Part shown: positions 5,493 through 59,467 of the stretch, piece by piece
Layout: the number at the start of each line of letters is the position of its first letter
How positions within the stretch are numbered: position 1 is the first letter of the stretch
Assembly (NCBI RefSeq): GCF_053078305.1
Contig: NZ_CP166875.1
Reading direction: 5' to 3' (one strand)
Length of the DNA stretch: 64,000 nt
DNA from: a plasmid
Position numbers and translations under genes: made by a program
The notes under the pieces: generated by a model
Told to the model about the DNA's origin: nothing
The model's input: only the letters and a program-made list of their open reading frames with translations
The model's database searches: none

Positions 5493-5513
5493 TTGTACAA
5501 TTTAATTGTACAA
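5493..5513 (+). promoter_or_regulatory. palindromic operator / promoter upstream of phd-doc
   Basis: Inverted repeat TTGTACAAT..ATTGTACAA containing a TACAAT -10-like hexamer, about 20 bp upstream of the phd start. Confidence 0.4.
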
Positions 5514-5530
5514 CTCAAAGAGGAAGCACT

Positions 5531-17230: not shown

Positions 17231-17235
17231 TCCCC

Positions 17236-17553: not shown

Positions 17554-17648
17554 CCTGACAGCCTGCTTTTTATCCCTCAGAAAAGGGGGATAAAAATTAA
17601 ATATTTCACAACCGAGATATTTTTCAGGAATGCAGATTATTTTATGTT

Positions 17649-18005: not shown

Positions 18006-18161
18006 AATAATGCTCCAGTTCTGAAATGCAATTCACTCTTATAATCCCCCCACGAACATGAACGTTCATTATCAATAACCCGATGAAATGATATTCATCT
18101 GAAGGCCAGTTACCCGCCACCTGTCTTATACCGTAACCCGTAATATACCGGATTTTATTCT

Positions 18162-24676: not shown

Positions 24677-25777
24677 ATGAAATTTCTGGAAAAACTCAAC
24701 AGTACTGAACTGGATCTGTCTGCCCTGAACAGCTGGACAGCCAGAAAAACCTTCGGTCTTAAGCGTGCCGAGTTCTATGAGTCCCTCGGCGGAATGATAC
24801 GTGACGGAACGCCGTCACTGCGCGCCCTGGAGTTTATCTGTAATGTCGAAACTGACTTTGGCACCCGAAAAGGAACATCCGGCATGTACTTTCTGGCCAG
24901 AGAATGTATTGCCTCCCTGAAAGCCAGCGGTATGCTGTCGGGGGCCCTGCCCACATGGGTTCCCCCGGAAGAAGCGGCACTGATCAGGAACGGTGAAGAA
25001 CGCGGGAACATCGCCGAAGCCCTGTTCCAGGTCGCAAAAACCATGAAAGCACGGCGGGAAATGGTGAGCAGTCTCATCACACTCTGTCTTTATCCCCTTC
25101 TGCTGCTTTCACTCTGTGTGGAGAATATGTACAACGCACATACCCGCCTCATCCCCATTGTCAGCGCTTTTGCACCGGAGGAGAAATGGTCATTCCAGAT
25201 GAAAGTCCTTGCAGCCATGTCAGAGCTTGTCATCGGCTATGGTCTGTGGATCAGTGGTGCCATCATCACGCTTGTCATCATCATCCGCTTCTCACTCAGT
25301 CGCTATACCGGCCCGGGACGCAGGCTTCTTGACAAACTGCCACCATGGTCGCTCTATCAGACTTTTCATGGTGTGAATTATCTGTTCAGCATATCGTCAA
25401 TGCTGCAGATAAATATTCCGCTTTCACAGGCGCTGCTCAGAATTGAAAAAAGTGCAGAGCATAATAAATGGTTAAAGGAGAGAATTCAGGCAATAAGAAA
25501 AAATGTATTATCCGGTCAGAATCTGGCCACCGCCATGCGCAATTCTGACTATGATTTTCCTTCAAAAATATGCATCAATAAACTTCTCTTAAATTCTGAA
25601 AGGGAAGACAGCGTATCTGCAATGAATACCTATGCCGGACAGTGGCTGGAAGATGCAAAAAATAGCGTCAGAAAAAGTGGATTAATTATCACCGGTATTT
25701 CAGGAGGTTTTGTATTCTTTTTTATTCTTAACATGATTAGCGCGATATACAGTATCAGCGATATGCTCAAGCAATAA
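24677..25777 (+). CDS. pilR: type IV pilus inner-membrane platform protein PilR (GspF/PilC family)
   Basis: About 366 aa from ATG 24677 (just after the pilQ stop); polytopic membrane protein; the ORF-track start at 24611 overlaps pilQ. Confidence 0.75.
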   Translation: MKFLEKLNSTELDLSALNSWTARKTFGLKRAEFYESLGGMIRDGTPSLRALEFICNVETDFGTRKGTSGMYFLARECIASLKASGMLSGALPTWVPPEEAALIRNGEERGNIAEALFQVAKTMKARREMVSSLITLCLYPLLLLSLCVENMYNAHTRLIPIVSAFAPEEKWSFQMKVLAAMSELVIGYGLWISGAIITLVIIIRFSLSRYTGPGRRLLDKLPPWSLYQTFHGVNYLFSISSMLQINIPLSQALLRIEKSAEHNKWLKERIQAIRKNVLSGQNLATAMRNSDYDFPSKICINKLLLNSEREDSVSAMNTYAGQWLEDAKNSVRKSGLIITGISGGFVFFFILNMISAIYSISDMLKQ

Positions 25778-25850
25778 TACCTGCCGTCACACTAAAACGC
25801 CCTTCAATATACTTTCATTAACGTAATAACCATTAATACAGGAGTCATAT

Positions 25851-26387
25851 ATGAACTTCAGAGCACGTCTGTCTTCTTATTTTTCTTTAAAAAAAGATAA
25901 AGAAGATGATAAAGGTTTAACATTATTAGAAATTGCCGGCGCAATGATTATCATCGCAATAGTTGTCGCGCTCGCGATGAGCCAGATGTCCAGCACAATG
26001 GCCTCCAGTGACAACCAGCGCGAACTGAAAAACCTGCAGACAATTGCAACCAAAATGAAGCAATACAAGTTCCAGGGAAGATATACCGGAACGGATTATA
26101 TCAAAACCCTGACGGAAAGCGGTGCATTGCCTGCTGATATGATTGCAGGAGGCAACAAAGCCAAAAACGCATGGGGTGGTGATGTCACGATTGCTGCCAC
26201 AGCAGACAAATATGGCTACATTATCACCAGTAATAATGTTCCTAAAACAAACTGTGTTGAGCTGATTAACAGCCTGCGCAGTTCGTCCATATTTACCAAA
26301 ATTATGAACACAGCCCCGAACACGGTGGATCCCGTTACCGTCTGCAGTAGCGATAAAAACAATATCAAGCTGGAAACCAACAGCTAA
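25851..26387 (+). CDS. pilS: type IVb prepilin PilS (major thin-pilus subunit)
   Basis: 178 aa; long basic leader ending ...DDKG followed by LTLLEIAGAMIIIAIVVALA with Glu at +5. Confidence 0.8.
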   Translation: MNFRARLSSYFSLKKDKEDDKGLTLLEIAGAMIIIAIVVALAMSQMSSTMASSDNQRELKNLQTIATKMKQYKFQGRYTGTDYIKTLTESGALPADMIAGGNKAKNAWGGDVTIAATADKYGYIITSNNVPKTNCVELINSLRSSSIFTKIMNTAPNTVDPVTVCSSDKNNIKLETNS

Positions 26388-26440
26388 TGCCCTGCCACAC
26401 AGCACTCCCTCCGGGGTGCTGTTTCCCGGAGCACATAATC

Positions 26441-29551: not shown

Positions 29552-30721
29552 ATGTTTCAAAAAAACAAAACTCGCAAAATGTCCCTCAGCCGGGCACTGG
29601 ACAAATACCTGAAGACTGTTTCCGTCCATAAAAAAGGTCATCTGCAGGAGTTTTATCGCGTCAATGTGATTAAACGTCACCCTATGGCCGATCGCTATAT
29701 GGATGAAATCACTACCATTGATATCGCCAGTTACCGGGATCAGCGTTTAGCTCAAATTAACCCACGAACAGGGCGTCAAATCACCGGAAATACCGTCCGT
29801 CTTGAACTTGCCCTTTTATCATCATTATTCAATATCGCCCGTGTGGAATGGGGAACATGCCGTATGAATCCTGTTGAACTGGTCCGAAAACCGAAAATCA
29901 GTAATGGCCGCGACCGCCGACTGACTTCTGGTGAAGAACGCCGCCTTTCCCGCTATTTCAGGGACAAAAATCCGCAGCTCTACGTTATCTTCCATCTGGC
30001 TCTGGAAACAGCAATGCGCCAGGGAGAAATTCTCTCATTACGCTGGGAACACCTCGATTTGCAGCACGGCGTGGCGCATCTTCCTGAAACGAAAAATGGC
30101 TCACCACGCGATGTCCCACTCTCCCGGAAAGCACGTAACTACCTGCAAATTCTGCCACAACAGATAAACGGCAATGTGTTCAGTTACACCTCGTCCGGTT
30201 TCAAAAGCGCCTGGCGTACCACTCTTCTGGATCTGAAAATAGAAAATCTGCATTTTCACGATCTCCGCCATGAGGCCATCAGCCGTTTGTTCGAGCTCGG
30301 CACACTGAACGTTATGGAGATTGCAGCCATTTCCGGTCACCGCTCCCTGAACATGTTGAAACGGTACACACATCTCCGGGCATATCACCTGGTCAGTAAA
30401 CTCGATGCAAGGCGTAAACAGACCAGCAAAATTTCCCCTTATTTTGTTCCCTACCCTGCAACTGTCAGAAACAGAAACGGAGTGTTCATTGTGACACTGC
30501 ACGATTTCGACCTTGAAAGCCGTGCTGAAACCCGGGAACTGGCAATATCTCACGCCAGCGTATTGTTGCTGCGCGCACTGGCCCAGGCTGCTCAGCGGGG
30601 TGAACGCGTCCCCACACCAGGCGAGCTACCCGCAAACATTGATGAACGGGTCATGATTTGTCCGTTAACAAACAGCCAGTTCATGACAAAAGCGAACAGT
30701 ATTTTCATATCCTCCTCCTGA
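29552..30721 (+). CDS. rci: shufflon-specific tyrosine recombinase Rci
   Basis: Tyrosine-recombinase motifs (...[20 protein letters not shown]..., [17 protein letters not shown], ...LKRYTHL); located just past the last sfx repeat; start taken at ATG 29552 (GGAAGG Shine-Dalgarno). Confidence 0.85.
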
Positions 30722-30732
30722 ACAAATAATTT

Positions 30733-31053
30733 TTGTTCAAAATTAACGCTATGAGACCCTTTATGAAACACTTATCCTCCCGTGCAGCCACTGCGGATAA
30801 TAATCGTATCGTAACAATTGAAGACGTTTACACAATCGCATTCTCGCAACCAATTCACACCGAATCAGCGTTGGGGCAAAGGTGGATGTTGATCCATACT
30901 GGTGAATATGAAAGTGCCAGCGATGCAAAACGCTTCCTTGATACGCTCGTCACCGGGCACTGTGCTTGCATGGTAACACCATCACCTGTTCTGGATCATG
31001 ACACCTGGCTGCGTATCCGCCTGCTGATGGGCGAGATAAGGGATGCCAAATAA
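30733..31053 (+). CDS. hypothetical protein (traE position of I-type transfer region)
   Basis: 106-aa ORF directly after rci. Confidence 0.3.
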   Translation: MFKINAMRPFMKHLSSRAATADNNRIVTIEDVYTIAFSQPIHTESALGQRWMLIHTGEYESASDAKRFLDTLVTGHCACMVTPSPVLDHDTWLRIRLLMGEIRDAK

Positions 31054-31144
31054 ACATTCATGGCCCCAACACATAAAAATAACGCCGGGGACTCTGGCAG
31101 AGGTACCATTCTTTTTACATAGAGCCAATATATAAACAACTTTT

Positions 31145-31465
31145 CTATGATAATATCTTTATCATGTTATAAATAATTGCCCCCTCAGCAGAAAGGGCCC
31201 AAATAGAAAAAGCAAAAATCCTTATAAAAATATTCTTTACAAGCGTTCCTATATACAAACAAACTATATAAACCAGCCAGAACAGAATGACTGCAAAAGA
31301 AACACACACGGCCCCCATAAAAATAAATGTCATCGAATCCCATGGTTTCACCAGTACAACCGGAACCATGGCTGCCAGAACAATAAGAGCAGCATTACCC
31401 AACAGCGTCTCTCGAATAATATCCCTTATAATCTCCAGTTTTTCTTTATGCTGTTTAATTTTCAT
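31145..31465 (-). CDS. small polytopic membrane protein, opposite strand
   Basis: 106-aa AT-rich ORF with three hydrophobic segments, antisense to the transfer operon. Confidence 0.3.
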   Translation of the reverse strand: MKIKQHKEKLEIIRDIIRETLLGNAALIVLAAMVPVVLVKPWDSMTFIFMGAVCVSFAVILFWLVYIVCLYIGTLVKNIFIRIFAFSIWALSAEGAIIYNMIKILS

Positions 31466-31724
31466 ACGAACCTCGTTGATTTCATCCCGAAAAGGAAAAG
31501 ATTATATAACGAAATACTTTCAATCTCCTGACTCCGTCTGCTCTGCAGCATAATGCCAGACCAGCGGCATGCTAAATCACGTCCTGTCCGAATCCTTTTC
31601 ATTCACGCTTAAAACAGAGTTAAAAGCACTCTTGAAACACACTCGATCATAACGATCGAAATAACTCGTTTCCGTTCAGTAAACACGCTCTTTAGACTTA
31701 ACATATGAACCGCACGGAGGTGAA

Positions 31725-32546
31725 ATGAAACCCAACAGCACAGGCATTGCTGCCCGCATGATGCTCTCCATTGACAGGGCCCGGATTAGCGAAGCTCTGC
31801 TCAATAACCGCCAGTTGCAGTCCACTCCCCTGCAGATCCGTTATCCGCAGGGCGTCAGAGAAGCACTCGGAATAATGAGCGAGCAACTCTCCCTTTCTGT
31901 ATCCGACCTGACGCGTATCCTGGTCGAAGATGCATTAACTGAAATGTTTCTCCCGGCTGAAAACATCGTTCACCGTCTTATCTGCCGGACAGAACACATC
32001 ATGCAGGCACATGATGTCTGCGTAACAACGATGACAACGTTACTGGCTCCCTGGAATATCCGTCCTGCCGTTTTCCGTGACCCGGACAAACTCGCAGATT
32101 ATCTGACAGGAGAGATTCTGACGGCTCTGGCTGACTGGTTTTATCTCAACCCGGAATGGCTGAACGGCAGGGTACGTTATCCTTTAAGCCGTGCCGGTGA
32201 GTGGCCAGCAACACAGGATGCGTTCTGCCAGCTTATTTCAGCCAGCGATAATGTGGATATTATTCTCTGGCACAGTTTTCCTTTTGCCGGTGTTCATTCA
32301 CAGGAATATTGCGGTGTACTGTTCCGCAAGAAAAAAGAAATTAATAAAGCCATCATTTATCCTGTACTTTCTTTATCACCTGTAAGAATGAATAAGGAAA
32401 AAGAAAACTGGTTTCACACTGCCCGCAATTTATATGCAAAGACATCCGTCCGGACCGTAACGCTTCGTCCGGCACAGGCAGAATATCTGATGACAGGAAA
32501 AATATTACCTGCTGAGTTATTCAGTATACCGTTATTACCCTGGTAA
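31725..32546 (+). CDS. conjugal transfer protein, function unknown
   Basis: 273-aa ORF in the tra gene array. Confidence 0.35.
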   Translation: MKPNSTGIAARMMLSIDRARISEALLNNRQLQSTPLQIRYPQGVREALGIMSEQLSLSVSDLTRILVEDALTEMFLPAENIVHRLICRTEHIMQAHDVCVTTMTTLLAPWNIRPAVFRDPDKLADYLTGEILTALADWFYLNPEWLNGRVRYPLSRAGEWPATQDAFCQLISASDNVDIILWHSFPFAGVHSQEYCGVLFRKKKEINKAIIYPVLSLSPVRMNKEKENWFHTARNLYAKTSVRTVTLRPAQAEYLMTGKILPAELFSIPLLPW

Positions 32547-45658: not shown

Positions 45659-46057
45659 ATGTCACGATTCCGTGCCATGGCGGCGCGTCTGTGCGCTGCA
45701 TTTATTTATGTTCAGTTATGCCTGGTGGCCTGCCGTGATCGGCTGATACGCCTGTTACTTCTGCTTCCCGTGATACTGCTGCCCCACACAGCGATGGCAA
45801 ACACCCTATTCGATATGATCAAAACCGTTGGCGATGGTGCAAAAGGCTCCAGCAGTTCATTTGTGGCTATCGGTCAGGTTATTGGCCTGGTGCTCTTTAT
45901 CGGCGGCCTGCTTGGCCTCAAACAAATCGGTAAAAAACCCGGTGCCGGGCTGGCCTGCCTGCTGTCAATTCTGGTCGGCCTCTGCCTTGCCGTCGTACCG
46001 GAACTGATGGGTAGCGGACAGAAAACGCTCGGTCTTTCTCCGGTTTCAATCAGTTAA
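45659..46057 (+). CDS. small integral-membrane transfer protein (TraR position)
   Basis: 132 aa with hydrophobic segments. Confidence 0.4.
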   Translation: MSRFRAMAARLCAAFIYVQLCLVACRDRLIRLLLLLPVILLPHTAMANTLFDMIKTVGDGAKGSSSSFVAIGQVIGLVLFIGGLLGLKQIGKKPGAGLACLLSILVGLCLAVVPELMGSGQKTLGLSPVSIS

Positions 46058-46113
46058 TCCGCAAAGGCACCGGGAAACCGGTGCCGTCTTCACACAATGA
46101 GGAGGACCAGACC

Positions 46114-46365
46114 ATGTCCTGTGAGCTGCCCCCTTTCACCCTGCTCAGAACAGAGCACGGCAACGTGATTGCCCGCGACAACCGGGATAATCAGGAGTTT
46201 GTGTTTGCAGAATGTTATTCCACCGCCATCGCAGCACTGATTCTGGCTGCCGTCACCCTGTATACAGAGAGAAAAACGTATGAACAAAACACCGCCACTC
46301 ATCGCCCCGGTCCGGGAACGCTGGCTTTTCCCGCTCCCGCAACCGGACACGGTATTCAGCGGTGA
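46114..46365 (+). CDS. small membrane protein (TraS position)
   Basis: ATG 46114 with strong GGAGGA Shine-Dalgarno; one TM segment; its 3' end overlaps the next ORF by about 86 nt. Confidence 0.3.
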   Translation: MSCELPPFTLLRTEHGNVIARDNRDNQEFVFAECYSTAIAALILAAVTLYTERKTYEQNTATHRPGPGTLAFPAPATGHGIQR

Positions 46366-47098
46366 ATCCCTGCTGCCACCACCAGTGCTCTCAACACCCG
46401 GACGCTGTCCCTGCTGTCGCAGGACCGTCACTCACCGCTTCATTCTGGAGGATTCATGGCCATTACAGCAGATGGCTGACACCTGCCGGGATACGGTCGT
46501 CCTGCTGGAAAAAAACCTCACCCGGGTGATGCGCCTGAAAAAACATCCGGTACCGGAAAATGCTGACGAAAAAAAGAAACACACCCGAACCCTGCAGGAT
46601 GCGGAGCGGTCCCTGGCACAGGCCCGCCTGTCGGCCAGGCGACTGGCCCTGCGTCATGTGGAAAAGTCACAAATCGTCACAACAGATGCACTCAGCGAAA
46701 ATGAAAGTGAACTGCTGCAGCCGGAAGGCCCGCCCTTTCATCTCTGTGCCTTCTGCCACGCCTGGCACTGCCTGAACGGCTACGCTGCCGCACAGGGGGT
46801 GATGGTCTGGCTCCCTGATTTGCATCCGGCCTCGGTAGTTGCTCTCAATGCACGGGCACTGAAGGAAATTTTCAGCGATGAGCGTAAGCGAGTCAGACAG
46901 GGACGGGCCGTACTGAATGCCCTGGTACAGAACCGCCTGGCCGTTGAGGAGAAATTTCGCACCTGGCGTCCGGCGGATTTTGCTGATGCACTGCGCCGCT
47001 GGCCGCCGGCACAGCGTAAAACGTTGAGGGAGAAAATGGACGGGGTGGCGCTCATTCTGCTGCCGGATTCGTTTCCTGACAAAAAGTACGTCATGTGA
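46280..47098 (+). CDS. Cys-rich transfer protein (TraT position)
   Basis: 272 aa with CPCC and CAFCHAWHC cysteine clusters; start uncertain (could be ATG 46469). Confidence 0.4.
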   Translation: MNKTPPLIAPVRERWLFPLPQPDTVFSGESLLPPPVLSTPGRCPCCRRTVTHRFILEDSWPLQQMADTCRDTVVLLEKNLTRVMRLKKHPVPENADEKKKHTRTLQDAERSLAQARLSARRLALRHVEKSQIVTTDALSENESELLQPEGPPFHLCAFCHAWHCLNGYAAAQGVMVWLPDLHPASVVALNARALKEIFSDERKRVRQGRAVLNALVQNRLAVEEKFRTWRPADFADALRRWPPAQRKTLREKMDGVALILLPDSFPDKKYVM

Positions 47099-47156
47099 CA
47101 CACACCGGTACCGATGACATTCTGCCGGCACACATTCAACTTACAGAGGAACAAAA

Positions 47157-47516
47157 ATGGATACACACTCTGCCGGATATCAGTTCACTGCAGATTCATT
47201 CCGGCGTTTTATTATACGGACGCTGACTGACAATATTCCGCCTGACGGAGATGAAAAAGAAATTGCCCGGTTCATTCTCCGCCACCCGGCATTTAACGGC
47301 GGCTGGCTGCTCTTTCTGGCTGCAGAAATTCATGAAAGATCCCGTACCCATAAAAGCATCACCGTCACAGTGAGCGTCGATAACTATCTCTCATGGATGG
47401 ATATTGCCGTATCCGGTCTCCCGGAATTACCGGATATGCCCTTCTGTGATTTTTTCATTCGCCGCCAGCAGTTTATCTATCCGGGTGTGCCCCCGACAAA
47501 ATCAGGAGAAGAATGA
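47157..47516 (+). CDS. hypothetical protein
   Basis: 119-aa ORF in the tra array. Confidence 0.3.
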   Translation: MDTHSAGYQFTADSFRRFIIRTLTDNIPPDGDEKEIARFILRHPAFNGGWLLFLAAEIHERSRTHKSITVTVSVDNYLSWMDIAVSGLPELPDMPFCDFFIRRQQFIYPGVPPTKSGEE

Positions 47517-47896
47517 TGAAAATTCACCGCATATCCCCGGAGATGCTTATAACACTCATCCACGCACACCTGGCCGGAAAAACTGACAGTACCGCCAAAG
47601 AAGAGCACCGGCTACTCCGTCGTTTCCTGCGGGATGATGACGGCAGGCTGGCCGGCGTACTGCTGAATATTGCCGGAATACTTCAGTTCAACAGGGAATT
47701 AAGTGCGCGGCATAATTATCCGGCCACACCCCTGACTGAATTTTCATTAAGGAAACGGGGAAAACAACTTCATCTCTGTCTCTGCAGTCTCCGTTTCTTT
47801 TATATTCCTCCGGTATTTATACAAAACAAAAGAAGAAAATCTATTGTTGTACATCTTAATAAGATCACTTATAAACAAACCCATTCAATACGCTGA
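47513..47896 (+). CDS. hypothetical protein, 3' end replaced by AT-rich insertion
   Basis: 127-aa ORF whose first ~75 codons have normal GC while the 3' part runs into AT-rich DNA (from ~47740). Confidence 0.3.
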   Translation: MMKIHRISPEMLITLIHAHLAGKTDSTAKEEHRLLRRFLRDDDGRLAGVLLNIAGILQFNRELSARHNYPATPLTEFSLRKRGKQLHLCLCSLRFFYIPPVFIQNKRRKSIVVHLNKITYKQTHSIR

Positions 47897-48414
47897 CGAA
47901 GTGATTCATACTGATTATACTCATCTTTGCCTATATGTTTTTTAAGCGTATTAACAATATCATATTGAGGATGTCCTGAATTGTCAGTATACAGTGTTGT
48001 TGCAGGAAGGACTGCATAATCTGATATTTCACAACCTGTATACAGTTCTTTGTCAGTTCGGCAGGAATGGCAAAGAGAAAGACATGTATACAGGTCTGTG
48101 TTTTCTGCCTCCTCAGGAGATAACCACGACACATATTGCAAATCATCTGTATCAGGATAACAATTTTCTTCCTGAACCTGAACTCTGAAAATATAGAAAA
48201 ATAATTCATCTTTTGAAAGGCATGCTATTTTATTCCCCCAATGCACCGCATTATCAAGTTGATCCGATAAATAAATCCATCCTGGTGTCGTCTCTAACGA
48301 CCAGCATATAACAGAAGGAGCATCAGTTCTTATTTTCCCATCTTTTATTATTTGCAGACCTCTGCTCATTGTTGTCGCATGAAAAAGATTTAATATTTTA
48401 TTTTCAGCCTTCAC
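47869..48414 (-). CDS. opposite-strand protein in AT-rich cassette; possible ADP-ribosyltransferase-fold enzyme
   Basis: 181-aa ORF; N-terminal LFHATTMSRGLQIIKDGKI resembles the H-G/A-T motif region of Tpt1/KptA-type and ART-fold proteins (weak, from memory). Confidence 0.45.
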   Translation of the reverse strand: MKAENKILNLFHATTMSRGLQIIKDGKIRTDAPSVICWSLETTPGWIYLSDQLDNAVHWGNKIACLSKDELFFYIFRVQVQEENCYPDTDDLQYVSWLSPEEAENTDLYTCLSLCHSCRTDKELYTGCEISDYAVLPATTLYTDNSGHPQYDIVNTLKKHIGKDEYNQYESLRQRIEWVCL

Positions 48415-48483
48415 TCTATTTCCTCATTTCCCAAGAAACATATTAAAAACGGAAAACATTACACATAACCTGGAGGACAAATC

Positions 48484-48576
48484 ATGACTTTAAATTTCCC
48501 TGCCGGGGAAACTACACTATTCTCAGCAAAAAACATCCTGACAGCAATACTCACTCTGCACAACTTACACGCATAG
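48484..48576 (+). CDS. 30-codon small ORF with strong RBS upstream of the traU-like gene
   Basis: GGAGGA Shine-Dalgarno 8 nt before ATG 48484; MTLNFPAGETTLFSAKNILTAILTLHNLHA-stop; not in ORF track (<60 aa). Confidence 0.2.
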   Translation: MTLNFPAGETTLFSAKNILTAILTLHNLHA

Positions 48577-48614
48577 CGTTCCCATTTGAATACAGTTGCA
48601 GCCCGCGATTTATT

Positions 48615-51600
48615 TTGTCTTCCGGAGCCACCTCTGCCATGAATATCAACCGCATTATTTTTGCCATTGAAGACTGTATCAGTACCCTGTCACGGTATTC
48701 CGTTTCCGCATTCTTCCCCGATTACTGTGATCTGCACACCGTCATCGGTCTGGACCAGCAGGACCGCGAACGCCGCCCCTGGCTGAAAGCCCCCTACATT
48801 GCCACCACAAAACAGGGGTATTACCTTTCCGTCTTTGAAATCAGCGGTGCCCTGAAAGAAATGGATGAAAACCCGGACCTGACAGCCCCCGGCACACTGG
48901 AATCACTGATTACAGCGCTGGCAGAGCGAATGAACACTGCCTATAAAAACACCGGTCACAAAATCAGTTTTGTTTTCGAACGCGATCCGGAGCGTGGAAG
49001 GGATGAAATCGAAGCCATGCTCTTACCCCAGCGAAAATCCATCGCACGCACGGGGATCCTGCTTCAGGACGTTCTGGATGAAAAAGTCACCACGCTCACC
49101 CCCTGGCTTGTCCGGGAACGCTGCTGGCTGACCGTCTGGAGCTCTGAAGAACTGCTGAGCCGGACCGATCGCAAGGACCACCAGACCCGTATCAGGAAAC
49201 TCGCTGAACACGCTCCGCCAGCCCGATTTGCGCAGGATCCATGGCGCTGGACACTTTCCGCACTCAAAATACGGCATGACGCCTTTCTGGACACGCTGGA
49301 GCAGGCCCTGACACATGATTCTGATGGTCTGCTGGTTCGCCTGATGGATATTCATGAAGTGGGACGGGAAATCCGCCGTCAACTGGAGCGCAACAGCACA
49401 CCTGCAGTATGGCAGCCTCATCTGCCTGAAGATGCCCGTCCTGCCGGCTGGCGACAGGGCGAGGATACCTCTGTATTCCACGCACCGTCGCTGAATCTGC
49501 AGTTATTCACCACACAGCCTGAAACACACGGCAGCCTGATAAAGGCCGGTGACCTCTGGCACGGTATGGTCGCCATTACCCTGCCACCCCAGAATCTGCG
49601 GACATTCAACCAGCTGGTCAGGGATGTGCCCCGCGCAATCCCCTGGCGTATCCGGATGGATCTGATGCCCGGCGGCATGAAGGCGCTTGGGGTCAAGAAA
49701 ACCCTGCTGACCTACAGCAGCTTTATTTCCCCTCTCCGGCCCATGTATGACTCGGTGATGATGCTGAATGACATCAACAAACATGATCCGGTCTGTATCA
49801 TGACCATTGTTGCCACCACATGGGGAAACAGCCGGGAAGTCTGTACCCGCAACCAGGCTCTCCTGAAATCTGCGCTGGAAGGCTGGGGAGTATGCGGCAC
49901 CACCACCACCTTCGGTGATCCGAGACGTGCCTGGGTGAACACGGTTCTGGCGGCCTCCCACGGTTCCGGTCCAGTCCCCCTTTACCCGCCCCTTTCACAC
50001 GCCCTTTCCCTGTTTCCCCTGAACAGGGCCGGCTCTGTCTGGCGGGGACAGGGAAATCTGATGATGCACACCGAAGACGGCTCTGCATGGGAGGTCGCGC
50101 TGGCATCGTCACAACAGAACAAGCACACGGAACTGACGCCCGGCGCACCCGGTCTGGGCAAATCGGTACTCATCAACGCACTGTCGGAGATCCAGATAGC
50201 CTCAGCCCAGAAGAACCTGCCTTTCATTGCCTATATCGACAAGGGATTCAGTGCACAGGGACTGGTACAGCTTATCCGTGACAGCCTGCCGGAGCAGAGA
50301 AAGGACGAAGCCGTGGGGATCATTCTGAGCAATGATCCGGAACACACCCGTAACCTGTTTGATGTGATGTACGGTGCTAAAAAACCCGCCACCCCGGAAA
50401 AGAACTTCATGGTATCTGTACTCTGCGCACTGTGCGTGGATACCGGCACCGGTCAGCCCTGTAATCCCGGTGACACCCGGCAAATCATAAGCAACCTGGT
50501 GGATCTGGCCTTCAGGGAGTATGGCGAAAACAACCCCAGACTGTACCGTGCAGGAACAGAGCCCCTTGTGGATCTCGCCCTGGAAGAGAGTGGCATCGCA
50601 GAACAACATGACGCTGGATGGTGGAATGCTGCCACCTGGTTTGAAATCAGGGACATGCTGCATATGGCTGGCAATATCCCCGCAGCCCAGCGGGCACACT
50701 ACCAGGCCATGCCCCTGCTGGCTGAAATGTCCGCCCTGCTGGGACAGCCATCCATCCGGGATGTGTTCGGCACAGTTCAGCGCGATAACTCAGCAGAATT
50801 GTTACTGGACTACATCCGCCGTGCCCTCGATCAGGGACACAGTGACTACCCGATGATGTCCGGCTGTACCCAGTTTATGCTCAGCCCCGACACCCGCGTC
50901 GTGGCCGTTGATCTGAACAATGTGGCCGGTGACAAGACACCTGCCGGGCGTCTGCGCACCGGCATCATGTACCTGCTGGCAGGACAAATCGCCGGAGGGG
51001 ATTTTGTCCTGCCGCAGTATCAGGAGGAAATACGGAAAAATCTCGACCCACGCTACCATGAGGTGATTTTCCGCCGCATTGAACAGCTTGATCAGGAGGT
51101 CAAGACCAAAGTCTATGACGAACTGCACAATGCAAAAGGGATCAATTTCATCTGGGAAGCCCTGGACACCCAGGAGCTGGAGCAGCGTAAGTTCGGGATA
51201 CGCACAGTGCTGAGCACCCAGCTATTGCAGGACTATCCACCGGCAGTTCTCAAATCCGCCAACACCCTCTGGTTGCTGCGTTACCGCCCTGACGAAATTC
51301 CGTTTCTGCGGGATAATTTTGGTGTCCCTGAAGTCACCCTGCGGCGCTTCCTGAAAATGCCGGAAGGGGCTGCACCGGATGGCAGCGGTGTCCCGGTACT
51401 GGCGGTGTTCCGTGTAAAAAACGGTACGCTGGCCCGGATCCTGAAATTCACTCTCGGTCCACTGGAGCTGTGGGCACTGAATTCCTCACCCAAAGACAGC
51501 GCCCTGAGACGTGCGCTGACGCAGGAGCTCGGGTCACTGCGGGCACGCCAGATCCTGGCAGAAAACTTTCCCCGTGGTTCAGCCACCTCACTGATAGAAC

Positions 51601-51683
51601 ACCGCGCCCGTACACATGACAGTGAAAACGTCATCCATGATCTGGCTGCGGAACTCATCCGTAAGCAGGGATATCACCTCTGA
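48615..51683 (+). CDS. traU: large T4SS ATPase (TraU / DotO-IcmB-like)
   Basis: 1022 aa; Walker A-like TPGAPGLGKSVLINAL; size and position match TraU of I-type systems. Confidence 0.75.
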   Translation: MSSGATSAMNINRIIFAIEDCISTLSRYSVSAFFPDYCDLHTVIGLDQQDRERRPWLKAPYIATTKQGYYLSVFEISGALKEMDENPDLTAPGTLESLITALAERMNTAYKNTGHKISFVFERDPERGRDEIEAMLLPQRKSIARTGILLQDVLDEKVTTLTPWLVRERCWLTVWSSEELLSRTDRKDHQTRIRKLAEHAPPARFAQDPWRWTLSALKIRHDAFLDTLEQALTHDSDGLLVRLMDIHEVGREIRRQLERNSTPAVWQPHLPEDARPAGWRQGEDTSVFHAPSLNLQLFTTQPETHGSLIKAGDLWHGMVAITLPPQNLRTFNQLVRDVPRAIPWRIRMDLMPGGMKALGVKKTLLTYSSFISPLRPMYDSVMMLNDINKHDPVCIMTIVATTWGNSREVCTRNQALLKSALEGWGVCGTTTTFGDPRRAWVNTVLAASHGSGPVPLYPPLSHALSLFPLNRAGSVWRGQGNLMMHTEDGSAWEVALASSQQNKHTELTPGAPGLGKSVLINALSEIQIASAQKNLPFIAYIDKGFSAQGLVQLIRDSLPEQRKDEAVGIILSNDPEHTRNLFDVMYGAKKPATPEKNFMVSVLCALCVDTGTGQPCNPGDTRQIISNLVDLAFREYGENNPRLYRAGTEPLVDLALEESGIAEQHDAGWWNAATWFEIRDMLHMAGNIPAAQRAHYQAMPLLAEMSALLGQPSIRDVFGTVQRDNSAELLLDYIRRALDQGHSDYPMMSGCTQFMLSPDTRVVAVDLNNVAGDKTPAGRLRTGIMYLLAGQIAGGDFVLPQYQEEIRKNLDPRYHEVIFRRIEQLDQEVKTKVYDELHNAKGINFIWEALDTQELEQRKFGIRTVLSTQLLQDYPPAVLKSANTLWLLRYRPDEIPFLRDNFGVPEVTLRRFLKMPEGAAPDGSGVPVLAVFRVKNGTLARILKFTLGPLELWALNSSPKDSALRRALTQELGSLRARQILAENFPRGSATSLIEHRARTHDSENVIHDLAAELIRKQGYHL

Positions 51684-52300
51684 TGTACAGCATACACATC
51701 ACTCCCCGCTGCCGGCGTCCTGCACGGGGACAGGTCTTCCTGAAAACGCTGCGCGTGGACGGTGACAGTTTCAGCTTCACCCTGCCGTCCGCCTGCTTCA
51801 CGCTGCGTCCCTCCCCCAATCCCCGGGTCATTTTCGCCAGTGACAGACGGGCTGACGGGGAAATGAGTGGCGTTCGCCTGGCTCTGCCCGGAGAGACAGG
51901 CACGCTGATAACAACGGCCACCTGGCAGGTCAACGTGCCGGAGCGGCCTCCTTTTGATATACAGCATGTCATTCACTGGCTCCTGCCCTCGCCTCTCACG
52001 GCGCTGATGTCCGACAACACCTGGCTGTGGCCGGATAGCCCCGGCACACCGGCACTGACGGCGGGAGACTGGCCGGTAATGGAAACCGATACCCCGACGC
52101 TGAAACGCGTGAAGCGTCGTACCTTCACGCTCATCGATAACCGCAACCGTCAGGGATGGATCACCCGTCGCTTCCAGTGCTTCCCGCTGGCTCCGCTGCC
52201 GGAATCACACAGTCACCGCGTACCAGACATCCTGTATCCCCTGAAAACGGAGAAAAAAGAATGCAAAGACAACCAGCAACCACACTGCTTGCACTCCTGA
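51683..52300 (+). CDS. transfer protein (TraV position)
   Basis: 205-aa ORF; 3' end overlaps the next gene. Confidence 0.4.
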   Translation: MYSIHITPRCRRPARGQVFLKTLRVDGDSFSFTLPSACFTLRPSPNPRVIFASDRRADGEMSGVRLALPGETGTLITTATWQVNVPERPPFDIQHVIHWLLPSPLTALMSDNTWLWPDSPGTPALTAGDWPVMETDTPTLKRVKRRTFTLIDNRNRQGWITRRFQCFPLAPLPESHSHRVPDILYPLKTEKKECKDNQQPHCLHS

Positions 52301-54104: not shown

Positions 54105-56270
54105 GTGAAAATCATACCCAGAGCACTGAGTGCGGGTCTGGCGCTGGCTGCCGTACCTGCACAGGCATTCGTCACCTATCAGGACATTGTGAGCGCCGCC
54201 ACCAATCCGGATGACCTGTCGCGCCAGGCACTGGTCACCATTTTTGGCGACGTGGTCACAAATCCCCTGACAGCCAGCAGCAACACCATTATCGGCAACC
54301 TGTTCATGGTGTTTAACGCAATTATCGCCATTATGGGGATAGTCTGGTTCCTGTTTATTGGAATCCGCCATGTTGTCCGCACCGGCCACCAGGGCAATGT
54401 CTTTAACAACGGGCGGGACGTCGTCGGAATGCTCAGTATTGTGAGCGGTTTTATGATGATTGTGCCCACCGCTTCCGGCTGGAGCCTGGCACAACTGGTC
54501 ATGCTCTGGGGCGCATCCATCATGGGCATTGGTTCCGCCAATATCATGGTTCAGACGGCTGCAGAAAACATCGCTGAAGGCTATTCAATGACCGTACAGC
54601 CAGTTCATGTCTCCACCCGCACGGCAGCACGGGGAATACTGGAGATGGCGCTGTGCAAACACGCCATGAATGCAGGCCTCGATGACTTTAACCGTACTGC
54701 CCGTTCATCAACGCCCCCCATGAGCGAATCCTCACGGACAGAGAACGGCAGGTATACCATCACCGTTTCAAATGGCAGTGCCACCTGCGGTAGTGTGAGT
54801 CTCTCCGTAAAAGGGAATGGCAGCAACAACCAGTCCGCACTGGACTATTTTTTCAATCCCTTCATTGAAACGGAGTATCAGGGTGTCCTGACGGCACAAC
54901 GCTCCGCCATGGATACCATGCTCCGTGACCTGGACAGCGCAGCACAGGAATTTGTGTCAGCGTACCGGACCCGACGCGACACGGGTAACGGCAACCTGCC
55001 GGATATTGAAAGCCGTATTCAGAAGGCTGCCAACAGGTATGAAGAAACGGTGCAGAAGGCGTTGCCAACAGATAACGCAGAAACTGAGCGCAGGGAGCAG
55101 CTGAAATCCTACCTGACCACCTACGGCTGGGTTGCCCTGGGGGCCTGGTACCAGACCTTTGCCACTGCCAACCAGCGACTGGCAGAACTGGCCGACCGTG
55201 CCCCCACTGTGAGTGGAGTTTCATCGCAGGGCGAAGCAGGGGATACTGAATTCCTGAAGGAAGTAAAAGGAGCTTACCAGGCACAGTTGCAAAACTCACC
55301 ATATACACCTGCACTGGGAACAGCCACCTCCGCCAGTGAATACCAGGCATCTAATACACAGAATCCTCAATCAGCCCTGTTAGAGTTCATAGGGCCAGGG
55401 TTAACTCGATTTTCAAATAAAGTAGCAACCATACATTCAGGAACAGGAACAACGAGTCAGCAGGCAAATCCTCTGCTGAAAATGAAGGACATTGGTGATT
55501 ACACCATGGTCACAACCGAAACCATCTGGGCGGGTTATACCACTGTCAGGGTGCTTTCAACTGCCGGCAGCAACTCCGTTTTTGGCCGACTGGTCAATGC
55601 CGTCAGCGGCTTATCTGATGCCGCAAAGGCTTTTCTGGAAGCCTCCGCACCACCACTCTACTTCCTGCTGTTTTTGCTGTTCTGTGCCGGTTTTTCGTTG
55701 TCCATTTACCTGCCGTTTATCCCGTTTATCTTCTGGATGACCGGCATCGGCAACTGGATAGTCAGCGTACTGATTGGATGCGCCGCCGGCCCCCTGTGGG
55801 CCGCAACCCACCTGGGAACAAGTCAGGACAGAGGAAGTCGGGCCGCTTACGGTTACATCTACCTGATAGACAGCATGATCAGGCCTCTGTTGATGGTGTT
55901 CGGGTTCTTTTTTGCATCGGTCGCCATCGTGGCTGGCGGCACCATACTGAATGCTCTGTACGCTGCAGCACTAATGAATGTCCAGATAAATTCTGTGACG
56001 GGCGTGTTCAGCATGGCGGGATTTTTGATGATTTATGCCCGCGCCTGTACCACACTGGTTGCGGGCGTTTTTGCACTTCAGGCTTATCTGCCAGACCATG
56101 TGATTAATTTTCTGGGCGGACGTGATGGCGTTAATATGCTGGGGAATATGGTTTCTTCCGTCAAAGATATTATTGCCGGCGGAAACACCAATATACGCAG
56201 AACACCTGGCGTTCGTGAAGATAAACTGAAAAATATTAATAGAGATGATAAGGACGGAATAAAACAATAG
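54105..56270 (+). CDS. traY: large polytopic inner-membrane transfer protein (TraY / DotA-like)
   Basis: 721 aa, GTG start, signal peptide, several hydrophobic blocks; size and position match TraY. Confidence 0.6.
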   Translation: MKIIPRALSAGLALAAVPAQAFVTYQDIVSAATNPDDLSRQALVTIFGDVVTNPLTASSNTIIGNLFMVFNAIIAIMGIVWFLFIGIRHVVRTGHQGNVFNNGRDVVGMLSIVSGFMMIVPTASGWSLAQLVMLWGASIMGIGSANIMVQTAAENIAEGYSMTVQPVHVSTRTAARGILEMALCKHAMNAGLDDFNRTARSSTPPMSESSRTENGRYTITVSNGSATCGSVSLSVKGNGSNNQSALDYFFNPFIETEYQGVLTAQRSAMDTMLRDLDSAAQEFVSAYRTRRDTGNGNLPDIESRIQKAANRYEETVQKALPTDNAETERREQLKSYLTTYGWVALGAWYQTFATANQRLAELADRAPTVSGVSSQGEAGDTEFLKEVKGAYQAQLQNSPYTPALGTATSASEYQASNTQNPQSALLEFIGPGLTRFSNKVATIHSGTGTTSQQANPLLKMKDIGDYTMVTTETIWAGYTTVRVLSTAGSNSVFGRLVNAVSGLSDAAKAFLEASAPPLYFLLFLLFCAGFSLSIYLPFIPFIFWMTGIGNWIVSVLIGCAAGPLWAATHLGTSQDRGSRAAYGYIYLIDSMIRPLLMVFGFFFASVAIVAGGTILNALYAAALMNVQINSVTGVFSMAGFLMIYARACTTLVAGVFALQAYLPDHVINFLGGRDGVNMLGNMVSSVKDIIAGGNTNIRRTPGVREDKLKNINRDDKDGIKQ

Positions 56271-56340
56271 AGTACAAAACAGTATTGCCATATTCACCTG
56301 AAGAGTTTAAAATATATTCAGGTGAATATGGAGGTTTATT

Positions 56341-56991
56341 ATGAACAAAACGAAAAGCAGATATCCTTCCTGGTGGGCATATTACCACTTGGCCCGCAAC
56401 GCTTATTTCTTATTAGGAATACCGTGTTTACTTTTATACTCAGCCGCTTATACATCAGATTTATTAGATGATAATCTAAGACATTCAACAAGCCTTTTTA
56501 TTTTGGCATATGGATGTTATTTTCTTCTTTTTATTCCCCCACTCTGGCTATATCTGAGAACTAAGGCAAAGAAAAAGAAAATCCTACAGGTTGTTAAGAA
56601 GATAAAAGAAAGCAGTCCCTTTGCGCCGACCAGCGATTACGAGCAACTGTCATTCTCGAAGAGTTGCTATTTCGGGATCGACATTAAAAACGGCACCATG
56701 CTGTATGTGCGCATTTACCCAAACAATGTCATGGATGTGATTGGTCTGGATATTCACAACTTCACCCGAACAGTTGCTGAAGACGGCAAGCTGGAAATCC
56801 ACACCACCTATGTGAGTCTGCCGATGATCCCTCTTGAAATCTCCGGCATCTCAGCAAGGACGCTGGCCAACACCATGCACACCATGGCTGCACGTGGATA
56901 TGAGTACAAGGAACGTTTCCCACAGATGATCCGGTATCGGGTTAAAGAGTGGGAAAAAGTTGCCGGTGTTCCTGTTGCAGAAGTATTTTGA
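56341..56991 (+). CDS. excA: entry-exclusion protein ExcA-like
   Basis: 216 aa with N-terminal TM helices, directly after the traY-like gene as in IncI plasmids; 5' half AT-rich. Confidence 0.5.
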   Translation: MNKTKSRYPSWWAYYHLARNAYFLLGIPCLLLYSAAYTSDLLDDNLRHSTSLFILAYGCYFLLFIPPLWLYLRTKAKKKKILQVVKKIKESSPFAPTSDYEQLSFSKSCYFGIDIKNGTMLYVRIYPNNVMDVIGLDIHNFTRTVAEDGKLEIHTTYVSLPMIPLEISGISARTLANTMHTMAARGYEYKERFPQMIRYRVKEWEKVAGVPVAEVF

Positions 56992-57023
56992 GGTAGCTAT
57001 CAACTGTTAGACGATAATCCGTC

Positions 57024-57056
57024 AGCCGGTTTTCTCTGAACCGGCTTTTTCTTTTC
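57024..57056 (+). terminator. rho-independent terminator after the transfer operon
   Basis: Perfect 8-bp stem AGCCGGTT / AACCGGCT with 7-nt loop followed by TTTTTCTTTT. Confidence 0.5.
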
Positions 57057-57176
57057 AGGCAGAATGCCTGTCTGCCGTCTATCTCAGGACGCCGCATGGA
57101 GTCTCTATGTTTTCCCCACAAATTCTTAGCACTGTCTTGCCCACTGTAGACAAAATCAATACAATTCTGCATATCA

Positions 57177-57195
57177 GTTATCTATAAAAGATAAC
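57177..57195. promoter_or_regulatory. palindromic operator-like site upstream of the 527-aa gene
   Basis: GTTATCT-ATAAA-AGATAAC, perfect 7-bp inverted repeat about 70 bp upstream of ATG 57265 in AT-rich DNA. Confidence 0.35.
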
Positions 57196-57264
57196 AATAT
57201 CATTATAAATAATTATCATATCCACACACTCAAGGCAGTACCTAGAAAACATAAAGATAAAATC

Positions 57265-58848
57265 ATGTCTACCCGCAGCAATTTTCCAGCACGACATGGT
57301 ACTCCATGGAATACTGAAGAGTTACAGCGTCTTCTCGTATCCATAGCGGAGGGCGTCTCGCTAAAAAAACTTACTCAAACACATCAACGATCGTCCGGGG
57401 GAATACGTGGAGCAATCAAACGCCTGCTTCCTTCTGAGTTTCTTGAGTTCAACGATATAAACACGGTGAATGATCTCAGCAATTACTTCAACAAGATTCC
57501 TCGCCAAGAACACAATAGTATCATCAATAATTTAATATCATTGAGCACTGCAAAAACAATTGCTCATGATAAAGTTGAAATACAAAAGAATAGTTTTAAA
57601 CAAAATACCCCACTCCCCCTCTGCCAACCCAATACAGATTTTAAAGATTATATAGCCGATGAACATGATGTCATTATGCTAATTCATTCTGCTATCGAAA
57701 GTTTATCTAATAAACGACATCAATATATTCTTCTAATGCGACTCGGCACAGATGATTCACCTCATTCTCTGGCAGATATTGCCGTCAAATTAGGAATTTC
57801 CCGTGAAAGGGTAAGACAACTTCAGGAACGAGCCCTTGGCTTACTAGCTGCTAAATCTCGCTATGAAGGGACACCTGGAGCTTGCCTTAAAGCCCTTATT
57901 AACTCAATAGGTAATTCACCATATGATATAGCAGTATGGATTTATCGTATTGTTCATCGGGATTTCGTTACATCCTCTGACTTAGCCGCCAAATTCATTA
58001 TTTTTACCGCAGGCATTCCTAAAGCAAGACGAGATGAAATAAAAAGTTCGCTCTCATTAATATCACAATTACAAAAGCAGAGGTTACGTGAACGAAGAGC
58101 AGAATTAGCACACGCTCGCGCTCAGGAAAGAGCCCGAATCAAGAAAGAAAGAGTTGAGTTCATATTCAGTAAATGGCTAGACAATACACATTGGCCAAAA
58201 TATATCGCACCTCCTCCCCCCGTAGAACAGCTATGTTCACAGAGAGCGGTTAATGATACTGACATATCTGGATTCTTTTACTCTCAAAAATTAGGTCGTA
58301 CAGTCCAGTACGAATCAGGGCTTGAGTTTAAAATAATGAATCTATTAGAATGTTGCGATCAGGTTCTTTTCTATCAAGAACAACCATTTTCTATTCCATA
58401 TTGTTTTAAAAACAAATCAAAAAAATACTATCCAGATTTACTCATTGCGACAGTTGATGGTCGGTGCCTACTTATGGAAGTGAAGCCAACAGACCGAATG
58501 ACCTTGAGTCTCACGAGAATAAAAAGTAATGCAGGTCGCAAATGGGCACATACTCGAGGATGGGGATGGTTGGTCATTAGTGATAGGTTCTCGTTACGTC
58601 AGCTGGAAGAACATGCCATCTCAACAAACACATGGAAACTTATAGAGGCTGAACTGAAAACATCAAGGATTTTAGCATGGCGTGAAATGATGGAGTTACG
58701 TACACGATACGAGATTCATCGTTTAGATCTTATTGCATATATCATTCAGTCTGGTGCTGAAGTGGATAACTTTTATCGAATTACCCCGAAAATATCTAAT
58801 AATACATCTAACCAGAGACAACTAAATGAGAGCGACTGTCATAATTGA
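57265..58848 (+). CDS. multidomain protein: N-terminal HTH, sigma-70 region-4-like HTH, C-terminal PD-(D/E)xK nuclease-like domain
   Basis: 527 aa, AT-rich. Residues ~10-50 HTH-like (WNTEELQRLLVSIAEGVSLKKL); ~150-210 sigma region-4 pattern (HQYILLMRLGTDDSPHSLADIAVKLGISRERVRQLQERALGLL); C-terminus has E...PD-x13-E-x-K (GLEFKI...YYPDLLIATVDGRCLLMEVKP). Confidence 0.6.
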   Translation: MSTRSNFPARHGTPWNTEELQRLLVSIAEGVSLKKLTQTHQRSSGGIRGAIKRLLPSEFLEFNDINTVNDLSNYFNKIPRQEHNSIINNLISLSTAKTIAHDKVEIQKNSFKQNTPLPLCQPNTDFKDYIADEHDVIMLIHSAIESLSNKRHQYILLMRLGTDDSPHSLADIAVKLGISRERVRQLQERALGLLAAKSRYEGTPGACLKALINSIGNSPYDIAVWIYRIVHRDFVTSSDLAAKFIIFTAGIPKARRDEIKSSLSLISQLQKQRLRERRAELAHARAQERARIKKERVEFIFSKWLDNTHWPKYIAPPPPVEQLCSQRAVNDTDISGFFYSQKLGRTVQYESGLEFKIMNLLECCDQVLFYQEQPFSIPYCFKNKSKKYYPDLLIATVDGRCLLMEVKPTDRMTLSLTRIKSNAGRKWAHTRGWGWLVISDRFSLRQLEEHAISTNTWKLIEAELKTSRILAWREMMELRTRYEIHRLDLIAYIIQSGAEVDNFYRITPKISNNTSNQRQLNESDCHN

Positions 58849-59467
58849 TGACGCACAGGACGGAAAAAATAATAGCTGCCGGACAGCAGCAACCAGCAGT
58901 CGTCCGGTAAAAAAGACAAACAAGGCGCATTGAGGTCAGCCTTCGCAACAATCCGGCGGCAGATTCTCTACCGCCGTGTTGCCCGTTAACGTTTAACTTC
59001 GTAGGCTAACGTTGCCACAAGCACCGTATTTCCCTGCTCGATACGAAATCCGCAAAGCGAATCCCTCACCATCCAGACAAAACACAGTATCGTCACACAG
59101 ACGACGATTAACATCATTAAAAACGTTCGTTGTGGCATCGCAGCCCCTCCATTGCCTTTCGGCCGTCATCGGGCTACTATAATGTTGTTGAGGCATTACA
59201 GTGGGCCCTGGGTTGATTGATAAAAAAATCGCCTGGGGCTTTCTGCTACATGCCGTCCACAAAACGCTTTCGGCATACAGCCTCAAGCGCCCGCCGCTAT
59301 TCTAATCGTTTTCCAGTCCGCCACAATCCTTTTCATGCCACCACGTATTTTGTGTCAGGGACAGAAATAAAGCCGGAAAGTGACTACGTGTGCACACATC
59401 TGTTTTCCGGGCTGCAGGCATCGTGTTATTTTCTGAAATGCAAAATAATAAAAAACAAGGACACATC

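Follow-up and report, generated by a model that had tools for sequence, protein, structure and literature searches.

How did an AT-rich stretch of DNA with a gene on the opposite strand come to lie within a conjugation operon, and what might that gene do? The question is raised by a plasmid (NCBI RefSeq assembly GCF_053078305.1, contig NZ_CP166875.1), of which we analyzed a stretch of 64,000 nucleotides, hereafter called the window. Directly upstream of the transfer gene traU, an open reading frame (ORF) for a 181-amino-acid protein, here named orf181, runs antisense to the transfer (tra) operon. An original prediction, made from the nucleotide sequence alone, held that this DNA is a cassette that had been inserted into the operon and had replaced the end of the upstream gene. 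Our results favor a different model, wherein the AT-rich DNA corresponds to the last of three genes in an old accessory module. The module (orf119 and orf127 on the operon strand, converging with orf181) would belong to the backbone of plasmids with MPF_I mating-pair formation, and the third gene would yield a product with an ADP-ribosyltransferase (ART) fold. We estimate the probability of this model to be about 0.6. The features of the locus are as follows.

47157 to 47516, plus strand: orf119, in tra-operon orientation; acidic product (isoelectric point (pI) 5.5); a coding sequence in CP057348 and NC_025145.
47516 to 47896, plus strand (ORF 47513/47516 to 47896): orf127, the second small partner gene; basic product (pI 10.8).
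47869 to 48414, minus strand: orf181, encoding a 181-amino-acid protein with a predicted ART fold; GTG start; GC content 0.36; pI 4.8; WP_001369268 / A0A075MAE3.
47869 to 47896: the convergent overlap of 28 nucleotides between the 3' ends of orf127 and orf181, from the ORF coordinates.
48639 to 51683, plus strand: traU, directly downstream on the operon strand; an essential transfer gene.

The window matches plasmids typed IncK2/Z and MPF_I, and plasmid pL2-87 (NC_025145) is identical to it at 100% over positions 46000 to 50000. In the annotation of NC_025145 all three small genes are hypothetical proteins, and orf181 is likewise labelled a hypothetical protein in public records. The opposite-strand gene that the original prediction described is present, with a GAGGA Shine-Dalgarno (SD) site before its GTG start. 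The ratio of nonsynonymous to synonymous substitution rates (dN/dS) for orf181 is 0.16–0.22 between lineages, which reflects purifying selection and thus indicates that orf181 is a real gene. The downstream gene, traU, is needed for transfer of the IncI1 plasmid pESBL (PMC4288162).

A composition count over the 64-kb window gives a GC content of 0.365 for positions 47740 to 48610 and 0.376 for positions 47897 to 48630. The flanks stand at 0.547 (46000 to 47700) and 0.569 (48700 to 51700), and GC is equally low in just 3.3% of 700-base-pair windows across the 64 kb. These values agree with the sharp drop, from about 55–60% to about 37%, that had been estimated by eye. Such a sharp GC trough speaks for the insertion of foreign DNA, and closely related IncK2 and IncI1 plasmids that lack the 181-amino-acid gene point in the same direction.

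However, the same trio, with orf181 antisense, recurs in syntenic order in at least five other diverged MPF_I lineages, represented by a Salmonella diarizonae plasmid (L007), plasmid L006 of Escherichia coli and metagenomic sequences of three lineages (L009/10, L011–13 and L014–16). Homologs of orf119 are syntenic in L006, L007, L010, L011 and L014. In all five lineages the orf181 homolog is antisense and overlaps the end of the orf127 homolog by 6–28 nucleotides, and in four of the five (L007, L010, L011 and L014) it directly adjoins traU. By ORF lists the overlap is 28 nucleotides in L006 and 19 in L007; by called-gene coordinates it is 6–9 nucleotides in L010, L011 and L014, and an overlap of this type in L024 spans 23 nucleotides. 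In four of the five lineages, the protein identity of the trio to the window rises and falls with that of the tra genes, as the following values illustrate.

L007: TraU 74%, 181-amino-acid protein 54%.
L010: TraU 63%, 181-amino-acid protein 41%.
L011: TraU 61%, 181-amino-acid protein 46%.
L014: TraU 47%, 181-amino-acid protein 41%.

The exception is L006, where the trio is 60–72% identical to that of the window but TraU is only 54% and TraQ 40% identical. In this plasmid the trio occupies a different slot, between traR and a gene for a PLD-family nuclease. Because the trio is closer to the window than are its tra genes, and because it lies in another slot, the module must have been exchanged as a whole on at least one occasion, which is a point in favor of an insertion event. 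Between the module and traU, L006 has this nuclease gene and a C-terminal fragment resembling traT. In the same plasmid (NZ_CP055049, positions 4175 to 6943), RefSeq lists a minus-strand ORF of 144 amino acids that covers the plus-strand orf119 homolog detected by tblastn, and this is probably a mis-annotation.

The orf181 homologs also have low GC content elsewhere (0.385 in L006 and 0.412 in L007, versus 0.58–0.63 for neighboring genes), and orf119 and orf127 have intermediate values of 0.44–0.46. Low GC is therefore a conserved property of the orf181 gene. The ORF upstream of orf181 does enter the AT-rich DNA, as had been noted, and overlaps the 3' end of orf181. The further proposal that its native 3' end was replaced does not hold, since the protein-level conservation of the orf127 C-terminal tail (consensus FFxxPPxF..KN..GK.I..HLH) extends to all five other lineages and to allele B, which lacks orf181. 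The AT-rich 3' end is thus native to the gene.

Plasmids that lack orf181 provide a second line of evidence. Five arrangements of the locus can be distinguished.

Allele A, window type: all three genes (orf119, orf127 and orf181).
Allele B, IncK2 plasmid L002: orf119 and orf127, without orf181.
Allele C, IncI1 plasmid L003: none of the three intact.
Fourth allele, IncI-gamma/K1 plasmid L004: orf127 alone.
Fifth allele, plasmid L005: an ISEcp1-blaCMY-2 insertion that truncates orf119.

By three-way alignment, positions 47897 to 48635 of the window are swapped for a common stretch of about 150 base pairs upstream of traU in L002, L003, L004 and L005. This replacement, by itself, looks like an insertion or replacement; a search for an orf181 remnant within the replacement sequence of the deletion alleles gave no significant match, and no repeats were found that flank the orf181 segment. 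A clearer picture emerges from the IncI1 plasmid L003, which retains a 5' part of orf119 that is 43 codons long (73% identity, E 1e-17), and from two sites in the window.

47271 to 47284, plus strand: direct repeat 1, TTCATTCTCCGCCA, within orf119; one deletion endpoint in IncI1.
47454 to 47467, plus strand: direct repeat 2, TTCATTCGCCGCCA, within orf119; the other deletion endpoint.

The 14-nucleotide sequence TTCATTCNCCGCCA has exactly two matches in the 64 kb (at 47271 and 47454), where none would be expected by chance. In L003, the first 43 codons of orf119 are fused to its last codons exactly at a single copy of TTCATTCNCCGCCA. This pattern, one copy at the junction and two in the window, is what a deletion between direct repeats leaves behind. 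In the favored model, the module has been wholly or partly deleted from IncI1/R64-type, IncI-gamma/K1 and some IncK2 plasmids.

The distribution of the segment is also informative. Positions 47897 to 48635 occur at 99% identity or more in 74 PLSDB plasmids, all of which have the same flanks as judged by matches to a junction-spanning query. They also occur in 77 of 5,426 complete E. coli genomes, in each as a single copy that is never chromosomal. The module is an old backbone resident that has been repeatedly lost, not a recent arrival, and the proposal of a cassette inserted into the transfer operon is contradicted by the syntenic trio, its low GC in at least five lineages and the deletion scars. 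Of two outcomes that the original prediction had named as decisive against it, one was observed, as related plasmids carry the same genes with similarly low GC, whereas the other, a lack of ART matches in profile searches, was not. Separately, an ISEcp1-blaCMY-2-blc-sugE unit lies at the traT/orf119 spot of some IncK2 plasmids (L005, NZ_MT725450, positions 1 to 3269, corresponding approximately to 46280 to 47250 of the window), which marks the traT–traU interval as a rearrangement hot spot.

What, then, does orf181 encode? Direct searches with the protein in Pfam, NCBIfam, PADLOC and PDB sequences gave no match, and there is a weak match to PHROG 13493, a family whose function is unassigned. 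Profile searching across 1.84 billion cluster representatives recovered 172 relatives at E ≤ 1e-3, nearly all of which are stand-alone proteins of 165–195 amino acids and all of which lack a name in the source databases. The family alignment comprises 128 sequences, from which the conservation counts given here are taken, and has the signature L-[YF]-H-[GA]-T...T-T-x-G-[YFW]-[VI]-Y-L-[TS]...A-x-x-[YFW]-[GA]-N...L-x-P-D-x-D-E...S-x-R...W. Three positions form a candidate active-site triad.

48379 to 48381, minus strand: His12 codon, FHATT motif (LYHGT in the family consensus), end of strand beta-1; conserved as His in 122 of 126 sequences.
48271 to 48273, minus strand: Tyr48 codon, in the G-W-I-Y-L-S motif; Tyr in 126 of 128.
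48151 to 48153, minus strand: Asp88 codon, P-D-x-D-[ED] motif; invariant Asp (128 of 128); the candidate catalytic acid.

A further acid, Asp90, is conserved in 120 of the 128 members. An AlphaFold2 model of orf181 (predicted local distance difference test (pLDDT) score 95.4, predicted template modeling (pTM) score 0.90) shows a split beta-sheet ART fold, and in a Foldseek search of PDB every top match is an ART toxin. The figures listed for the compared proteins are 8.6 for TreX, 8.5 for LT-A, 7.9 for DarT1 (133 residues aligned), 7.9 for PltA, 7.7 for KptA, 7.0 for Arr (18% identity), 6.8 for CC0527, 5–7 for PARPs and 4.8 for IcmQ. Relatives of the window protein also match known ART models: Pfam PARP matches three members at E ≤ 1e-3 (best 8.7e-7) and seven at E ≤ 0.1, ART-PolyVal matches three at E ≤ 0.1, and DUF3990 matches one. 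To judge from its sequence, LFHATT is the His-Gly/Ala-Thr NAD-binding motif of the ART fold. The original prediction was therefore right to read the N terminus as that of an ART with respect to fold and NAD-binding motif. Its more specific likeness to KptA/Tpt1 fared less well: the family LYHGT does align with the HGT of two Tpt1 structures, but the alignments are not significant (E 0.28 and 2.9) and the N-terminal RNA lobe is missing.

No model for the family exists in Pfam, NCBIfam or PADLOC, and it is undescribed; literature searches for the protein accession, DUF3990 and I-type plasmid ARTs turned up no account of it. Inspection of orf181 by eye revealed no signal peptide or membrane segment, and no predictor was run. 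The UniProt automatic name of the identical protein A0A075MAE3 is DUF4433 domain-containing (DarT), RefSeq calls it hypothetical, and the Pfam DarT model matches none of the 128 members.

The family was compared with known ART systems. The closest Pfam neighbor of the wider family is DUF3990 (PF13151), whose proteins are of similar size (170–180 amino acids). One of the 128 members matches this model (E 7.8e-4); the window protein and the other 127 do not. Neighbors named DUF3990 in the AlphaFold database give template modeling scores of 0.79–0.81, and orf181 lies at the edge of this family. DUF3990 is an ART-clan family that also occurs at Rhs toxin tips and is itself uncharacterized, so the comparison is silent on mechanism.

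The putative triad of orf181 (H12, Y48 and D88) parallels residues H19, Y49 and catalytic D84 of Arr-ms (PMC6092378). However, the family matches no Arr profile, and the SN[YF] and DPN[VL] substrate-site motifs of Arr (PMC6092378) are absent, with PDTDD present instead. In addition, orf181 has about 40 extra C-terminal residues, including an invariant Trp178, and it resides with conserved partner genes in conjugation operons and prophages rather than in integron cassettes. Membership in Arr was rejected because there is no profile match and no rifamycin-site motif.

DarT enzymes need a catalytic Glu (E152 in DarT1 and E160 in DarT2; PMC11543638), whereas the invariant acid of orf181 is Asp88, and orf181 is acidic, not basic. 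The partners of orf181 are members of an unrelated small-protein family that are encoded convergently, and no macrodomain or NADAR neighbor is present. DarT membership was rejected on the absence of Pfam DarT matches (0 of 128), the lack of a catalytic Glu, and the neighborhood, in which orf119 and orf127 carry no Pfam domain and the downstream gene is traU.

In Tpt1/KptA (PF01885), an N-terminal winged-helix RNA lobe carries the catalytic Arg-His-Arg-Arg tetrad. The orf181 protein lacks this lobe, only 83 residues align, and the profile E values of 0.28–2.9 are not significant; Tpt1 membership was rejected because the lobe is missing. In comparison with the R-S-E toxin ARTs (cholera toxin/LT A1, pertussis S1, PltA and TreX), orf181 has His rather than Arg on beta-1, lacks a secretion signal, B-subunit or Rhs carrier, and is only 9–16% identical. 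Beyond the fold, the HGT motif and the triad, none of the defining features of DarT, Tpt1 or Arr that we tested is found in orf181.

The partner genes offer additional clues. Neither orf119 nor orf127 has a Pfam domain or a PDB sequence match, and no macro, NADAR or ARH domain is recognizable in either. Comparison of the two by hhalign gives a probability of 88.8% (E 2.5e-6), and the order of predicted secondary structure elements is identical; they are remote paralogs. The orf127 family is consistently basic (pI 8.9–10.9 across lineages), whereas orf119 is acidic.

In Rahnella sikkimica, a plasmid has just one gene of the orf119 type (hhalign probability 93.4%, E 2.5e-7), and its partner in the pair codes for an ART homolog with a local identity of about 35% to the window protein. 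The pair converges with overlapping ends and lies between pilL and pilN in a type IV pilus operon. Since the orf119-like gene occupies the pilM slot, we considered whether orf119 might be PilM, which was rejected by an hhalign probability of 0.17%. Taken together with the tra trio, the Rahnella pair indicates that a partner and a converging, antisense ART form a recurring unit, seen in two distinct operons related to conjugation. Members of the orf119 family occur only in Enterobacterales, and the records with a named source are plasmids. Six MPF_I lineages and Rahnella have a partner gene, and none is found beside the ART genes of a Pantoea plasmid or of prophages. An AlphaFold2 model of the linker-fused trio (pTM 0.61) has all three domains folded and hints weakly at some inter-subunit packing, which the model, having no predicted aligned error or contacts, does not assign to particular subunits.

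More distant ART relatives are about 20–35% identical to the window protein and stand alone. One is located beside parA on the Pantoea plasmid. Several others lie in Firmicutes prophages, between the tail/baseplate genes and the holin/endolysin cassette; this tail-to-lysis interval is a classic accessory-gene slot of prophages. When a family member from a prophage was used in a tblastn search of 50,697 sequenced phages, there was no match.

What role might such a module play? The IncI1 plasmid pESBL transfers with traT directly beside traU (PMC4288162). Because both L003 and pESBL lack the module and pESBL transfers, the module is dispensable for conjugation. The orf181 protein would bind NAD+ and transfer ADP-ribose to a target. 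The protein is strongly acidic (pI 4.79, net charge -11; family median pI 5.35), which disfavors a DNA or RNA substrate and makes a protein or small molecule the more likely target. The gene would be read from its own promoter, opposite to the tra operon. Since the operon continues past orf181 to the essential gene traU, its transcripts would either cross orf181 in the antisense direction or arise within the AT-rich segment itself, and in both cases an inverse coupling between ART expression and tra transcription is to be expected. The orf119 and orf127 products would be made together with the tra proteins and are likely partners of the ART, either as a neutralizer or as a specificity factor. 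Given that plasmids without the module conjugate normally and that relatives occupy prophage accessory slots, a role in mobile element–host conflict or plasmid fitness is likelier than one in DNA transfer, and we infer that orf181 most likely serves such a conflict- or fitness-related function. The defense or anti-defense role put forward in the original prediction may still apply, but PADLOC lends it no support. The transfer genes of I-type plasmids lie outside the leading region, which is the usual home of anti-defense genes.

Several observations weigh against the model of an ART and its partners set out above. Even with a cutoff of E ≤ 10, Pfam gives no match for the window protein, and PADLOC gave no significant match for orf181, orf119, orf127 or eight family members. 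The Asp that replaces the usual catalytic Glu could mean a non-transferase or binding-only role, as in IcmQ. The putative link to the partners is drawn from synteny and charge; the Pantoea plasmid and prophage homologs have no partner, and allele B retains orf119 and orf127 without the ART. Promoter and terminator scans returned only weak promoter-like matches, which are uninformative, so that no promoter was placed with confidence and the logic of convergent transcription is one that we infer.

Among more specific functions, a toxin–antitoxin or addiction system, in which orf181 is a growth-arresting ART toxin and orf127 and/or orf119 the antitoxin that together provide plasmid stabilization or abortive infection, is possible but on balance unlikely. 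The convergent arrangement of ART and partner in two operon contexts is consistent with this function, as are the complementary charges (-11 versus +14) and a weak GTG start that is kept in three lineages. Allele B has lost the ART and kept the partners, which is the order of loss expected of such a pair, and many structural neighbors are toxins (TreX, DarT, ParT and MbcT). However, L004 retains orf127 alone, the Pantoea plasmid and Firmicutes prophage homologs stand alone, the toxin and its putative antitoxin are not co-transcribed, and the partners lack any macro, NADAR, ARH or other Pfam domain.

Rather unlikely, and advanced here only tentatively, is the idea that the ART and its partners form a hitherto unrecognized conflict or regulatory module of conjugation operons. 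With the partners transcribed along with tra or pil genes and the ART gene read in antisense, ADP-ribosylation would be switched with mating state. We regard as distinctly unlikely a non-catalytic ART fold that acts as an NAD-sensing regulator or as an accessory to type IVB-like secretion. This idea draws on the Legionella protein IcmQ and on the Asp at the catalytic position, but the triad is invariant across the 128 members, including prophage members that have no secretion system. Furthermore, orf181 is antisense to the machinery genes and the module is dispensable in IncI1.

An Arr-like enzyme that ADP-ribosylates an antibiotic or other xenobiotic, and thus serves as a resistance gene, is very unlikely. 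Despite the parallel triad, Pfam Arr matches no member, the substrate-site motifs are replaced by PDTDD, and the C-terminal extension, the conserved partner and the prophage accessory slot are atypical of Arr. Similarly, a DarT-like enzyme that marks single-stranded DNA of phages or incoming plasmids by DNA or RNA ADP-ribosylation would agree with the UniProt DUF4433 name, but it is highly improbable for a protein with a pI of 4.8, no match to Pfam DarT, no DarG macrodomain or NADAR neighbor, and an Asp in place of the catalytic Glu (PMC11543638). Finally, the GC trough, the related plasmids without the gene and the exchanged L006 module notwithstanding, a foreign AT-rich cassette recently inserted between the traT side and traU, replacing the end of the upstream ORF and bringing defense or anti-defense cargo, is essentially excluded by the conserved position and composition, the native orf127 tail, the deletion remnants, the lack of flanking repeats, and the single context of the PLSDB carriers and single plasmid-borne copies in E. 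coli genomes.

Two other features lie between orf181 and traU.

48415 to 48638: the divergent orf181–traU intergenic region, which is not alignable with other lineages.
48484 to 48576, plus strand: a 30-codon ORF with a GGAGGA SD sequence before it, from the ORF list and the sequence.

The intergenic region must carry the promoter or 5' untranslated region of orf181 as well as the ribosome-binding site of traU. No conserved upstream motif was seen across lineages, and Rfam reports no element between 46000 and 50000. The 30-codon ORF that had been pointed out earlier is present, GGAGGA sequence included, but it has no counterpart elsewhere: a tblastn search over related loci gave zero matches, and the matching intergenic space in L007, L010 and L011 is only 63–87 base pairs, which is too small to hold it. 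Nothing in these sequence comparisons supports the ORF as a gene.

In the Salmonella plasmid L007, GTTAATAGTTAACAGTTAACAG repeats with GTTAAC palindromes are present at positions 5975 to 6000, directly upstream of the GTG start of the orf181 homolog. These repeats are a possible operator and are absent from the other lineages compared. The GTG start of orf181 is kept in three lineages (at 48414 in the window, 5492 in L006 and 6001 in L007) and is ATG in three others; the retention of GTG may result from selection for a low level of translation. Within the coding sequence of orf181, a 21-nucleotide inverted repeat (48034 to 48054 and 48075 to 48095) is 86% complementary with a 20-nucleotide loop and coincides with a repeated LYT(C/G) peptide motif. 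The window holds further low-GC islands (700-base-pair windows below 0.42) at 1 to 6750, 17150 to 18250, 25200 to 26400, 30650 to 31800 and 55850 to 59000, among which the lowest 700-base-pair value is 0.277 near 4000.

The gene is carried by I-complex plasmids typed IncK2/Z (B/O/K/Z group), and it is present in the 74 PLSDB plasmids and the 77 E. coli genomes. The module is missing from the examined plasmids of IncI1 (L003 and pESBL), the best-studied I-type group, and this absence may explain the silence of the searched literature on orf181. The locus is a clean example of low GC as a stable property of a backbone gene and not as the mark of a recent insertion. If ADP-ribosylation is indeed switched with mating state, the module might protect piliated donors from pilus-specific phages, or it might act on recipients after delivery by Dot/Icm-like type IV secretion. 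An ART family with a conserved partner family, encoded antisense in transfer and pilus operons and related to accessory genes of prophages, presents a concrete and inexpensive target for experiments.

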